From NCBI RefSeq assembly GCF_054482525.1, contig NZ_CM137006.1: DNA of 64,000 nucleotides. One strand, 5' to 3'. Under the pieces are notes generated by a model. It was not told the origin of the DNA and did no database searches. It saw only the letters and a list, made by a program, of their open reading frames with translations. This document shows, piece by piece, positions 48,993-50,649 of the stretch. A program made the position numbers and the translations under genes. The stretch's first letter is position 1; each line of letters starts with the position of its first letter.

Positions 48993-50649
48993 GATCGTAT
49001 CCCTGTCCCCCAACATTCAGCCAAGCCTTCACGAGCCTTCCTTTCGAGATATAGACTTCTTTGTCGACTGTTTCGACCTGAAACTGAAAGCCATCGTCTT
49101 CCGGGTATTGACGAGCGTGATTGATAGCATGTCGGTAAGGGTCAAGCTCAGTATCATCAAATGTTGGAATATCCTTGCCAGCAGGTTCGGCTTGTTTCAG
49201 GGCATCAAAGAATTCTGTTGCAGAAGTGAATTTTGCGGCAACGGCATCCCGTAATACAGATGAATACCAGTGCTGGCTGTTTAGCATGTTGTCCTGTACT
49301 TTCTCCAGACTCTTTGGCGACATGCGCATACCGCTAAATAAGTGCCAGGCGACAAGGCCCAGAGTATGAACATCTTGCTGAAAAGGCGTAAGCTCGCCCT
49401 TATCAAGCATGTCTTTTACGTGGACTGCACCTACGGATAAAAGCTTACGGTAATCGCCAACCGTTCCGGCTGGCTGGTGGTAAGCCGAAATAAAGTTCGA
49501 AAGAGCAACTTCTTTTGAAGGTGAAATCCACAGACTGTGATCGGCGACATCCCTGTGCGCAATTTTCATCTCATGGAGATCACTAAACTTTGCAATGAGC
49601 AGTTTCACCACATTCAAGCGGTCCATATCAGAAAAGTTCTTACCATATTTTCCGATAAACTCATTAAACCGGACATGACCCGGCGGAACTTCGTAGACTT
49701 CGCTATACTCGGCCGTCACCTCGTCTTTCTGAAAACTCGTCAAAGACCTGAGACAGTGGTTATACAGGTCACGATTCTGGTGATTGATGTGCTGTAACAC
49801 TTCGCGCTCACGTGAAACAATCTGAGCTCGTCCTTCCGGGGTATTCGCTTTCGTTCCCGTTATATTTCTAAAATTCCATACTCTGAGTAGCGCTTCGCTG
49901 TTCGTTGATATCTCAGATTTTGCCAGATATTCTCGATACACCTTTTTAGGATGTTCGAAAATCATATCATTAGCTTCATAGCCATTAACTCTCAAGGCTT
50001 TTGGTGCCGTCTGAGGCCCTAGGAACAAATCATCGAAAAGATGGAAATCCTTGTTAAGAACCTTGGTAGCTGGGTGCGGTTTGAAATAGTTATTGAAGCT
50101 CCCGCGATCGGCAAACTTCAGGAAATCTTTTAACGAGATCGTATGGCGCCGTTGTTCCTCCGGCAGCGCGCTGAAATCTGCATTGCCGGTCATCACAACA
50201 AAAAAATGAACAATCGGGATATAGCCTTTGTTCGTAAAACGGTCTACCAGACGCTTGAGTTTTTTGTCCAGCATGAATTTTTTGCTACGAGTCACGCTTA
50301 CTGGCGAGCGCCCCATGTTCTTATCACCTTTAAACCAAGTATCTCCGCGTGCGGTTACAGGCTGATGGTTCCAGTCTTTCAGTTCAACAATGATCACGTT
50401 GCAGTGTGTTACAATAACTAAATCGAATTCCCCCTCTTTTTTTGCCTCAACAAATCGAAAACCTGCATAACCTTTCCAAGGGAACATTTCATTGCCGATA
50501 AAACCATAGCTTTTTAGCTGCTCACTAATTGAACCGCTACGGAAAGGCTTGTCAGGCTTAGATACGTTGACTGAAAAAGCAGCTTTTATTTTCTCGATAG
50601 CCAATACTTCCTGTTCTTGTAAGCCACCATCCCACATTTCTACTTCCAA
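48993..50649 (-). CDS. N-terminal 552-aa portion of the IS629-interrupted giant gene: NERD (PD-(D/E)xK nuclease-like) domain + Hanks-type kinase-like domain + start of second kinase-like domain
   Basis: TTG start at 50649 with AAGGAG 7 nt upstream. NERD-like core GEFDLVIVTHCNVIIVELKDW (aa about 73-93). Kinase-like motifs YLAK (aa about 241-244), HRDVADHSLWI (365-375), SNF in DFG position (384-386), DVHTLGLVAWHLFSG (426-440). The ORF-track product's last 53 aa (LNRPGF...SPPT) are read-through into the IS629 right end, not native. Confidence 0.7.

Follow-up and report, generated by a model that had tools for sequence, protein, structure and literature searches.

A split kinase-helicase gene and its neighbour

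The window analysed here is a 64,000-nucleotide stretch of contig NZ_CM137006.1 (NCBI RefSeq assembly GCF_054482525.1). On its minus strand it carries a large gene cut in two by an insertion sequence (IS) and a smaller intact gene that overlaps the stop codon of the large one. The feature that concerns us is very probably the N-terminal half of mkoA, which encodes the large NERD-pseudokinase-kinase-helicase protein of a Mokosh type I anti-phage system and is interrupted here by the IS. The features lie as follows, with amino acid numbers referring to the reconstructed protein and D1 and D2 denoting its first and second kinase-like domains.

42933..44369, minus strand: mkoB, 478 aa, with a 4-bp overlap with the mkoA stop (PADLOC PDLC03923)
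44366..47680, minus strand: mkoA 3' fragment, codons 549-1652 and the stop
44489..46123, minus strand: Upf1/IGHMBP2-like SF1 helicase core (AAA_11 aa 1068-1377, AAA_12 aa 1404-1612)
46145..47089, minus strand: linker and beta-rich region, aa 746-1060 (beta strands 766-804 in the AF2 model)
47090..47680, minus strand: C-terminal part of D2, aa 549-745 (alpha-C, hinge and alpha-F RD; Pfam Pkinase aa 577-657)
47312-47320, 47357-47371 and 47411-47434, minus strand: D2 motifs SPE, IDIPDF and HGDIHPGN, respectively
47680..47682 and 48993-48995: left and right copies of the target-site duplication GAT, read from the sequence
47683..48992, plus strand: IS3-family element, IS629/IS1203-like, 1310 bp, with 25-nt terminal inverted repeats read from the sequence
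47737-48063 and 48060-48950: orfA and orfB of the IS
48994..50637, minus strand: mkoA 5' fragment, codons 1-548 (NERD, D1 and the first 56 residues of D2)
48994..49161, minus strand: N-terminal part of D2, aa 493-548 (beta1-beta3, with K537 at 49027-49029)
49162..50025, minus strand: kinase-like domain D1, aa ~205-492 (Pfam Pkinase E 8e-4, PDB profiles, AF2)
50233..50481, minus strand: NERD (PD-(D/E)xK-type nuclease-related) domain, aa 53-135 (Pfam PF08378 E 2.6e-7)

Over aa 1-1648 the reconstructed protein follows positions 5-1603 of the 1607 in the PADLOC MkoA profile PDLC03921 (2206 bits, E 0), and the next gene matches the MkoB profile PDLC03923 at E 1.9e-151. Several hallmarks of Mokosh type I were found: a COG1112/Upf1-like SF1 helicase with intact ATP motifs, a fused STK domain and an adjacent mkoB. 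This system has already been named and experimentally verified, and the tandem of kinase folds is not a new signalling architecture. In the accessible part of the supplement to Millman et al. 2022, the MkoA of SG199, the verified system of E. coli SEC470, is entered as a 1652-aa 'Kinase-Helicase' that begins with MWDGGLQEQEVLAIEKIK, and the MkoA described here is 92.5% identical to it over the 399 aa visible there. As far as those entries extend, the two systems share the 1652-aa length and start of MkoA (MWDGG, found in RefSeq WP_001333439.1 as well), the two-gene layout and a 478-aa MkoB with a common start; they differ in that mkoA is split by an IS629/IS1203-like insertion only here. More widely, a cutoff of E <= 1e-30 gathers 256 clusters of the MkoA family (clustered at 50% identity), whose full-length members mostly measure 1570-1740 aa, and the mkoA-mkoB pair is also kept in Cupriavidus. 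The earlier note on this DNA had missed the identity of the gene as the MkoA of Mokosh type I.

The IS lies in the orientation opposite to mkoA and entered after codon 548, where it separates the beta3 Lys of D2 from helix alpha-C. One end of the element matches features whose annotation reads 'IS3-like element IS1203 family transposase'. Past codon 548 the 5' fragment picks up 53 foreign codons from the IS before a stop is reached at 48832, and the resulting minus-strand reading frame, 48832..50649, is the listed ORF that holds the NERD domain and D1. Counted from MWDGG the truncated product has 601 aa; the listed ORF, which opens at an upstream TTG, has 605 aa. When the IS and one GAT were deleted in silico, a continuous 1652-codon ORF emerged whose product shows 0 mismatches in 1652 residues to the intact E. 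coli protein WP_001333439.1; the intact allele is equally 100% identical to WP_000622487.1. The empty site is also found elsewhere: an 800-bp query across the junction matched 331 of 5426 complete E. coli genomes over at least 80% of its length, 319 records doing so at 99% identity or better, and in the 25 E. coli genomes among the matches listed the site is uninterrupted and 100% identical over the full length. The IS-gene junction itself (window positions 48893-49092) was found at 0 places in complete E. coli genomes at a coverage of at least 80%. The reconstruction is thus secure, and the tandem kinase pair exists only in the reconstructed gene.

It follows that the interval 48993-50649, in which the earlier note had placed both kinase-like domains behind a NERD domain, does contain NERD and D1, but the D2 motifs lie outside it, beyond the IS. 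All that the interval holds of D2 is its first 56 residues, beta1-beta3 including K537. The proposed fusion of these domains to nuclease-like and helicase modules is likewise real in the reconstructed gene only: because mkoA is inactivated by the IS, the fused protein cannot be made in this genome. An intact mkoA ORF was not found in the window, the gene being split after codon 548 and mkoB remaining intact. What is left is a NERD-D1 stub and a promoter-less helicase fragment, and a loss of Mokosh function is to be presumed from the split in the gene structure. The insertion looks recent, given that the remainder of mkoA is unchanged. In an annotation of this genome, the locus is best entered as a defence system inactivated by an IS.

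Two kinase folds between a NERD domain and a helicase

Intact MkoA (1652 aa) comprises a NERD domain, a pseudokinase (D1), a protein kinase (D2), a beta-rich linker and a Upf1-like SF1 helicase. Residue conservation was counted over 101 sequences, namely MkoA and 100 family representatives with 26-53% identity (median 29%). The putative catalytic residues of the NERD domain are retained almost without exception: D72 is found in 101/101 and K87 in 100/101, and position 85 is acidic (E or D) in 101/101, with all three invariant in 54/54 closer homologs. At the other end of the protein, the helicase is recognised by Pfam (AAA_11 E 1e-37, AAA_12 E 5e-42) and by the NCBIfam IGHMBP2 family (E 6e-50); its Walker A (GPPGTGKT) and Walker B (DEAA) motifs are intact, and the core residues of both are invariant in the 101 sequences. 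A Pfam scan assigned the linker (aa 746-1060) to no family; its sequence is common to the shorter MkoA type from about aa 878 onward (PADLOC PDLC03920, aa 878-1635).

For the region between NERD and linker, several lines of evidence indicate a pair of kinase folds. Pfam Pkinase scores 41.1 bits on the whole protein (gathering threshold 31.7) in two stretches. Profile-profile comparison by hhalign pairs D1 with D2 at 93.7% probability (E 2e-7), aligning HRD with HGD and R252 with K537. When aa 1-816 were modelled with AF2 (mean pLDDT 83), the best Foldseek match was the EGFR kinase-domain duplication 9p9u (E 2e-12 over 560 columns); JAK 7t6f came next (E 6e-11 over 746 columns), and after it Aurora A, EGFR, PDK1, PknB and STRAD. 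D1 and D2 are diverged copies of one Hanks-type fold, and the structure check gave kinase folds rather than the helical repeats that the earlier note had named as grounds for abandoning its reading. One could still argue that HRD, HGD and DF are chance motifs in non-kinase sequence, or that the ORFs on either side of the IS are unrelated genes; taken singly, the two domains do fall below the Pfam gathering threshold (19.3 and 29.5 bits against 31.7). We find this scarcely credible, given that structure, profile and profile-profile evidence agree on kinase folds, that the mkoA ORF runs uninterrupted in the genomes with the empty site and that the insertion is flanked by a GAT duplication, and it was rejected on these grounds.

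The two copies differ in their catalytic residues. D1 carries HRD at 49549-49557 (within AHRDVADHS) and, as previously noticed, SNF at 49492-49500 (within LSNF) in the place of DFG. Its third motif, DVHTLGLVAW, had been taken for an APE-like segment and is instead the alpha-F 'DxWxxG' motif of subdomain IX. D1 has neither a Gly-rich loop nor an APE. At the beta3 Lys position 100 of the 101 sequences have Arg (R252 in MkoA) and a single one has Lys; the residues listed at the DFG-Asp position are G, H, N, S and R, with Asp in 0/101; and the catalytic-loop Asn position is occupied by S in 64, C in 11, N in 10, R in 7 and T in 4. Nevertheless, the fold itself is well supported. In a comparison of the D1 profile with PDB sequences, PhK, B-Raf and PAK were reached at E 3e-4 and the best 60 matches were all protein kinases, and the order of secondary-structure elements in the AF2 model fits a kinase. 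Since D1 keeps the fold and the HRD but lacks the residues required for catalysis, we classify it, from its residue pattern, as a conserved pseudokinase; the suggestion that it might be one is borne out by the beta3 Arg, the absent DFG Asp and the rarity of the Asn. Its conservation is at least equal to that of D2 (mean pairwise identity 51% for D1 against 46% for D2), a pattern that indicates that D1 is under selection.

Could D1 be an active enzyme all the same, either an atypical kinase or a nucleotide-dependent enzyme that uses R252 and a His-Ser loop in the manner of the WNK- and CASK-type exceptions? The near invariance of R252, E277, H361, D363 and D422, each kept in at least 100 of the 101 sequences, could support a non-canonical activity, as could the greater conservation of D1 relative to D2, and the domain at the equivalent position of PglW has been annotated as an atypical tyrosine kinase (PMC4365076). 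We consider such an activity unlikely. The DFG Asp and Gly-rich loop are missing altogether and the beta3 Lys and catalytic-loop Asn nearly so, comparative-genomics papers name the D1-equivalent domain inactive (PMC12839542; PMC10853773), and in PglW mutation of the second-domain Lys alone removed autophosphorylation (PMC4365076). A pseudokinase is thus our preferred reading of D1.

D2, by comparison, looks complete in most respects. Its HGD...N and IDxxDF had been proposed as a catalytic loop and a metal-binding segment, and this assignment holds: like K537, the residues are kept in ~90-98% of the family. Individually, over the 101 sequences, K537 is found in 91, HGD in 95-96, D633 in 95, N638 in 94, D652 in 98 and D655 in 89 (with Glu in another 8). 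The DFG-equivalent Asp is D652 or D655 depending on the alignment; against CDPK, the D2 string 'liDip' falls on 'iiDFG'. An APE-like SPE (YSPE, aa 668-671) and the alpha-F RD are also retained. Searched against the PDB, the D2 profile reaches CDPK at E 8e-13, then MSK1, RAD53, Stk1 of S. aureus and PKR, and its best 60 matches are all protein kinases. D2 is accordingly an intact-looking Hanks-type protein kinase. Its activity is best described as predicted, because the alpha-C Glu is unclear (E/D/A in column 563, K/E in column 560) and a canonical GxGxxG is absent.

The same irregularities, together with a loop that reads HGD rather than HRD, might suggest that D2 is a kinase of small molecules or nucleotides, of the Bud32, RIO, Kdo or APH type, instead of a protein kinase. 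Weak matches to APH (E 0.007), ABC1, Kdo, OspG and WaaY, an NCBIfam Bud32 match at E 3e-5, and precomputed Pfam assignments of Kdo PF06293 to many homologs and RIO1 PF01163 to one point in this direction. However, the best matches by far, CDPK and Pfam Pkinase, are to Hanks-type Ser/Thr kinases; SPE and RD are specific to protein kinases; D2 matches profiles of the PD-T4-6 defence kinases at E 8e-12; and its PglW counterpart autophosphorylates (PMC4365076). We therefore regard a small-molecule role as rather improbable and D2 as a protein kinase. The label 'small atypical kinase', used in the earlier note, is apt only in part: the Hanks-type matches stand far above those to Bud32, Kdo, APH and ABC1, and SPE and RD argue the other way.

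MkoB and a possible division of labour

In its AF2 model, MkoB consists of a wHTH and a C-terminal domain with a PLD-superfamily fold. Foldseek relates the protein to F13, PLD, NucT, Nuc and Zucchini; for the C-terminal domain only PLD-superfamily structures were returned, with marginal values of E 2e-4 to 3e-2, and a Pfam scan of MkoB found no PLD match. The HKD motif is degenerate: among 41 homologs H422 is invariant, the residues listed at the +2 position are S, T, A and V, and Lys never occurs there. The table of Millman et al., in the part accessible, labels SEC470 MkoB 'HTH' only. A PLD fold minus the HKD lysine raises the question of which nuclease executes defence.

In the likely mechanism, the helicase would sense phage RNA or replication intermediates, and D2 would be the catalytic kinase, autophosphorylating and/or phosphorylating protein targets. 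D1, lacking canonical Mg-ATP coordination, would regulate D2 or serve as its scaffold, in the manner of JAK or PglW, a JAK-like D1-D2 interface being an analogy only. The NERD nuclease would deliver the output, perhaps with a contribution from MkoB. A further possibility is that, in the subtype with a long MkoA, the catalytic function of the MkoB PLD domain has been lost, the strictly conserved NERD domain is the working nuclease, and sensing by the helicase is coupled to it through the pseudokinase-kinase pair. We put this further idea forward tentatively, as one that may well prove wrong. If true, it would amount to a 'nuclease swap' inside one named defence family, reusing the NERD-pseudokinase-kinase cassette of PglW and some DndF proteins.

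The domain-level reading of MkoA also offers targets for mutation, namely K537, D633 and D652 in D2, D363 and R252 in D1, and D72, E85 and K87 in the NERD domain. According to the accessible part of Millman et al., mutations were confined to the ATP site of the helicase and to the PLD site, and MkoA is described there with a single STK domain, NERD and pseudokinase going unmentioned in that part. Our literature search for mechanistic work on the Mokosh kinase or on 'tandem kinase' defence returned only Millman et al. and the comparative papers on PglW and DndF, with no experiment on the kinase domains of any MkoA in the literature searched; the current version of the CoCoNuT paper mentions neither the Mokosh kinase nor 'tandem kinase'.

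Relation to known defence systems and kinase tandems

The other verified Mokosh type I system, that of ETEC H10407, resembles the present one in having a kinase-like N-terminus, a Upf1-like helicase and an adjacent HTH-containing MkoB. The helicase half of its MkoA is homologous to aa 878-1635 of the protein described here (PADLOC PDLC03920, E 2e-130). H10407 MkoA differs in that it is 1215 aa long, has one kinase-like domain and is without NERD, and its MkoB is annotated HTH-PLD and has a HAK motif. The single kinase-like domain itself looks like a pseudokinase, as it reads HRH...N and GFE. Compared by hhalign with the D1 and D2 profiles it gave no significant match (probability 1.7% and 4.7%), so it can be assigned to neither.

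Outside Mokosh, the closest parallel is PglW of Streptomyces coelicolor, where NERD spans residues 12-130, the atypical kinase 195-490 and the Hanks kinase 537-704, and in which the K677A substitution abolishes both autophosphorylation and defence (PMC4365076). The N-terminal triad thus stands at nearly equal residue numbers in the two proteins, and NERD and D1 are related in sequence as well. The PADLOC PglW profile covers aa 53-442 of MkoA at E 4e-27 and NCBIfam BREX_PglW (NF033442) aligns at E 6e-24. The PglW parallel drawn in the earlier note therefore reflects true homology with an equal layout.

This homology might be taken to mean that we are looking at a variant or a leftover of BREX type 2 (Pgl) in which the protein acts as PglW, and the two profile matches would favour such a view. 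We consider it highly improbable. At 84 bits the NCBIfam match falls far short of its cutoff (990) and aligns only NERD-D1 (aa 53-437), and the full-length profile match goes to MkoA. The C-terminal half is a Upf1-like helicase, whereas that of PglW is made of wHTH modules and an inactive STAND ATPase (PMC12839542). Moreover, PglW works with PglX, PglY and PglZ, whereas the partner of MkoA is MkoB. The neighbours of mkoA are mkoB and genes for a Gp2-like protein, DUF3987, AlpA, an orphan ORF and an integrase, that is, island genes and not the BREX core; pglX, pglZ, brxC and brxD/HI were not found in the flanking genes scanned (42933-44369 and 51312-59386), and searches of 51312-59386 with NCBIfam, Pfam and PADLOC found only island genes and no second defence system. 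Membership as a BREX type 2 PglW was rejected on the sub-cutoff profile, the helicase C-terminus and the lack of BREX core genes in the flanks scanned.

A triad of NERD, inactive kinase and active kinase has been reported for both PglW and DndF (PMC12839542; PMC10853773); in DndF variants, where the kinases are of the S/T/Y type, the fused triad is the N-terminal module of a protein with another sensor core (PMC10853773). The MADS kinase MAD6 is a further carrier: profile NF047741 matches aa 64-456 at E 2e-31, with 109 bits against an equivalog cutoff of 460. DndF and MAD6 differ from MkoA in their C-terminal cores and partner systems. D2 (aa 557-653) is also akin to PD-T4-6, several profiles of which it matches at E values down to 8e-12; PD-T4-6 proteins, in contrast, consist of a kinase by itself (300-480 aa) and lack NERD, pseudokinase and helicase. 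Finally, the JAK JH2-JH1 pair and the EGFR kinase-domain duplication resemble D1-D2 in having consecutive kinase folds on one chain, the first of them catalytically impaired, and at only 12-13% identity these tandems are of independent origin.

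An insertion sequence within mkoA

The interval 48993-50649, in which the earlier note had placed two tandem kinase-like domains, lies in a minus-strand ORF of mkoA, the large-subunit gene of a Mokosh type I anti-phage system. This ORF encodes a NERD domain, behind which comes a kinase-like region bearing the motifs AHRDVADHS, LSNF and DVHTLGLVAW, and it has no natural end, foreign sequence following directly after ...GGQGYD.

Features of the mkoA-mkoB locus
42933-44369, minus strand: mkoB, the partner gene, 478 aa
47683-48992: complete IS629/IS1203-like element of the IS3 family, 1310 bp, with a GAT target duplication
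47683-47707 and 48968-48992: 25-nt inverted repeats flanking the transposase ORFs, with GAT on either side
47737-48063 and 48060-48950, plus strand: two overlapping transposase ORFs adjoining the mkoA 5' fragment
48993-50649, minus strand: interval inside ORF 48832..50649, translation start MEVEMWDGG

The end of the element matches IS1203-family transposase features annotated in many E. coli genomes. Deletion of 47683-48995 (the element plus one GAT copy) fuses ORF 48832..50649 in frame with the 1063-codon ORF 44366..47557 and its upstream codons, giving an mkoA of 1652 codons from MWDGG to stop. An 800-bp stretch across the reconstructed junction is uninterrupted and 100% identical in all 25 listed complete genomes of E. 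coli, and it was matched over at least 80% of its length in 331 of 5426 genomes (319 records at 99% identity or higher), where it sits within a 4959-nt CDS annotated 'AAA domain-containing protein'. The reconstructed MkoA has no mismatch to WP_001333439.1 over 1652 residues, and the 478-aa MkoB is identical to WP_000622487.1. The fragments on either side of the element are one gene. The tandem domains are real but split by the insertion, and the motifs of the second domain assigned to 48993-50649 fall beyond the element, where HGDIHPGN occupies 47411-47434 and IDIPDF 47357-47371.

The junction between the element and mkoA was found in none of the 5426 complete E. coli genomes searched. Given this absence and the 100% identity of the rest of mkoA and mkoB to intact alleles, the insertion looks recent or lineage-private. 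The cut falls after residue 548 in the second kinase-like domain (D2, aa 493-745), with the beta3 lysine K537 before it and helix alpha-C after it. It parts the NERD and first kinase-like domain (D1, aa ~205-492) from the remainder of MkoA and breaks up the N-lobe of D2, and the system in this genome is therefore presumably non-functional.

The two kinase-like domains of MkoA

An AF2 model of MkoA aa 1-816 (60 homologs in the alignment; mean pLDDT 83) gives D1 and D2 the canonical kinase order of elements, with an N-lobe of three to five strands and a long alpha-C, then hinge strands, alpha-E, a beta7-beta8 hairpin and alpha-F. The best two Foldseek matches in the PDB are tandem-kinase proteins aligned across both domains, the EGFR kinase-domain duplication 9p9u (560 columns, E 2e-12) and JAK 7t6f (746 columns, E 6e-11), followed by ordinary kinases and the pseudokinase STRAD. 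Among the profile matches listed, D1 finds phosphorylase kinase, B-Raf, PAK and TNIK (E 3e-4), aligning HRD over HRD and 'LSNF' over 'LTDF', and D2 finds CDPKs, MSK1, RAD53, Stk1 and PKR (E 8e-13), aligning 'liDip' over 'iiDFG'; PADLOC profiles of the PD-T4-6 defence kinase also match D2. The two domains align with each other at a profile-profile probability of 93.7% (E 2e-7, 216 columns). Fold, Foldseek matches, per-domain profiles and mutual alignment together rule out helical repeats with chance HRD/HGD motifs, the alternative the earlier note had raised against itself.

Catalytic residues were counted in MkoA and 100 full-length family representatives (n=101; 26-53% identical to the query, with a median of 29%). 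D1 carries Arg at the beta3 position in 100 sequences and Lys in a single one, its DFG-Asp position holds G41/H20/N16/S14/R4 among the residues listed and never Asp, the catalytic-loop Asn position holds S64/C11/N10/R7/T4 (again as listed), and it has no Gly-rich loop. The alpha-C Glu (100/101), H361 (101/101), D363 (100/101) and the alpha-F Asp D422 (101/101) are retained; DVHTLGLVAW, previously taken as APE-like, is this alpha-F motif (DxWxxG). D1 is slightly more conserved than D2 (mean pairwise identity 51% vs 46%; invariant columns 40/288 vs 26/253) despite its absent catalytic residues. It is a pseudokinase kept by selection and not a decaying copy.

D2 conserves K537 (91/101), H631 (96), G632 (95), D633 (95), N638 (94), D652 (98), D655 (89, with 8 Glu), the SPE-motif P670 (88), R681 (79) and D682 (99). 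Its DFG equivalent is D652 or D655, depending on the alignment, and family alignments show no clear conservation of its alpha-C Glu or Gly-rich loop. The NERD active-site residues D72, E85 and K87 are invariant in sequence alignments.

MkoB and the surrounding island

Pfam and NCBIfam scans of MkoB gave no match. Two parts of its AF2 model are confident, a wHTH at about aa 40-95 and, at the C-terminus, a domain spanning aa 245-478. The Foldseek matches of this C-terminal domain all belong to the PLD superfamily (vaccinia F13, Streptomyces PLD, NucT, Nuc, FAM83, Zucchini) at marginal E values of 2e-4 to 3e-2. Across 41 homologs, H422 and a glycine 14 residues on are invariant, a spacing shared with the Nuc HxK...GSxN motif, and position +2 is never Lys, the residues listed there being S/T/A/V. 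The missing HKD lysine fits the labels in Millman et al. (bioRxiv 10.1101/2022.05.11.491447), 'HTH' for MkoB of the E. coli SEC470 type vs 'HTH-PLD' for that of E. coli H10407. In SEC470-type systems the PLD of MkoB may have lost catalysis, the MkoA NERD being the actual nuclease, an idea motivated, not established, by a PLD fold without this lysine.

Other features of the island
56180-57997, plus strand: 605-aa ORF with no Pfam, NCBIfam or PADLOC match, lying in island DNA of 32% GC; an orphan cargo gene with AlpA/DUF3987 on one side and the integrase on the other
58184-59386: P4-type integrase adjoining a direct repeat of roughly 60 nt
~59548-59610 and ~59728-59790: direct repeat of roughly 60 nt, ending in ...CCTCACCGCCA and a terminator-like hairpin
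59604-59740: RtT-like element between the repeat copies (41 bits, below gathering)
59783-59870, minus strand: two CRISPR-DR4 (type I-F) repeats and one spacer, between integrase and clpA, scoring 50.1 and 29.7 bits in Rfam

The direct repeat and hairpin resemble a tRNA-Ser gene 3' end (att-like); ARAGORN found no tRNA gene in the 64-kb window. The CRISPR repeats look like the residual I-F array beside clpA in E. coli, and a casual look at their surroundings showed no cas genes. Just upstream of mkoA (~50714-51100; L001 11227-11562), the annotation of the intact reference genome has what is left, with a frameshift, of a protein named for a 'TOTE conflict system archaeo-eukaryotic primase domain', from which the island may once have held another, since decayed conflict system. 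One flank (40540-42453) is a malX/malY-'enterotoxin' neighbourhood like that of strain 503025, and at the other (60084-62711) the integrase adjoins clpA-clpS. In E. coli K-12 a long distance separates these regions, so this strain would seem to have a rearrangement here or an island laid out differently.

Relation to verified Mokosh systems and to PglW

MkoA matches the PADLOC profile PDLC03921 along its full length (2206 bits), and the downstream protein matches MkoB PDLC03923 (E 2e-151).

Pfam domains of MkoA
aa 53-135: NERD
two stretches: Pkinase, 41.1 bits vs a cutoff of 31.7
aa 1068-1377: AAA_11
aa 1404-1612: AAA_12

In the Millman et al. supplement, the verified type I system SG199 is that of SEC470, whose MkoA is 1652 aa, starts MWDGGLQEQEVLAIEKIK and is labelled 'Kinase-Helicase' (bioRxiv 10.1101/2022.05.11.491447); the MkoA studied here is 92.5% identical to it over the 399 residues of SEC470 sequence compared. 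The family comprises 256 clusters at the 50% identity level (E <= 1e-30), mostly of 1570-1740 aa, and the gene pair recurs in Cupriavidus, where a 481-aa MkoB homolog comes after a NERD/Pkinase/AAA_11/AAA_12 protein of 1655 aa.

Beyond this observed architecture, residue conservation and identity with a verified defence system, the Upf1-like helicase would sense phage RNA or replication intermediates, as Millman et al. hypothesize (bioRxiv 10.1101/2022.05.11.491447). D2 would be the catalytic kinase, D1 might regulate or scaffold it by analogy with JAK or PglW, and the NERD active site would provide a nuclease output. The same source presents type I MkoA as an RNA helicase that also carries an STK domain and reports defence abolished by mutation of the helicase ATP site or the PLD site, with a kinase mutant unmentioned there. 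The single kinase-like domain of verified H10407 MkoA has LLHRHLDEN and LTGFEW at the HRD and DFG places (Millman et al., supplementary file 11), and judged by these motifs this 'STK' likewise looks pseudokinase-like, which raises the question of whether Mokosh needs kinase catalysis at all.

The NERD-D1 portion shares homology with PglW (PADLOC E 4e-27, NCBIfam E 6e-24) and with the MADS kinase MAD6 (E 2e-31), both scores being far under the curated cutoffs. PglW has been described as carrying NERD at 12-130, followed by an 'atypical tyrosine kinase' at 195-490 and by a Hanks kinase at 537-704; neither autophosphorylation nor phage resistance is retained in its K677A mutant (PMC4365076). The triad 'NERD-REase + inactive + active S/T/Y kinase' occurs in PglW and some DndF proteins and has been proposed as an effector or co-effector module on varied sensor cores (PMC12839542, PMC10853773). 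Given the profile matches and this shared triad, the parallel with PglW drawn earlier is correct and reflects true homology, and the earlier interpretation was essentially right. The feature belongs to a defence system that already has a name and has been verified, and its N-terminal cassette is on record in relatives, so its interest is low; mildly new are only the explicit naming of one pseudokinase and one kinase in MkoA and the degenerate PLD of MkoB.
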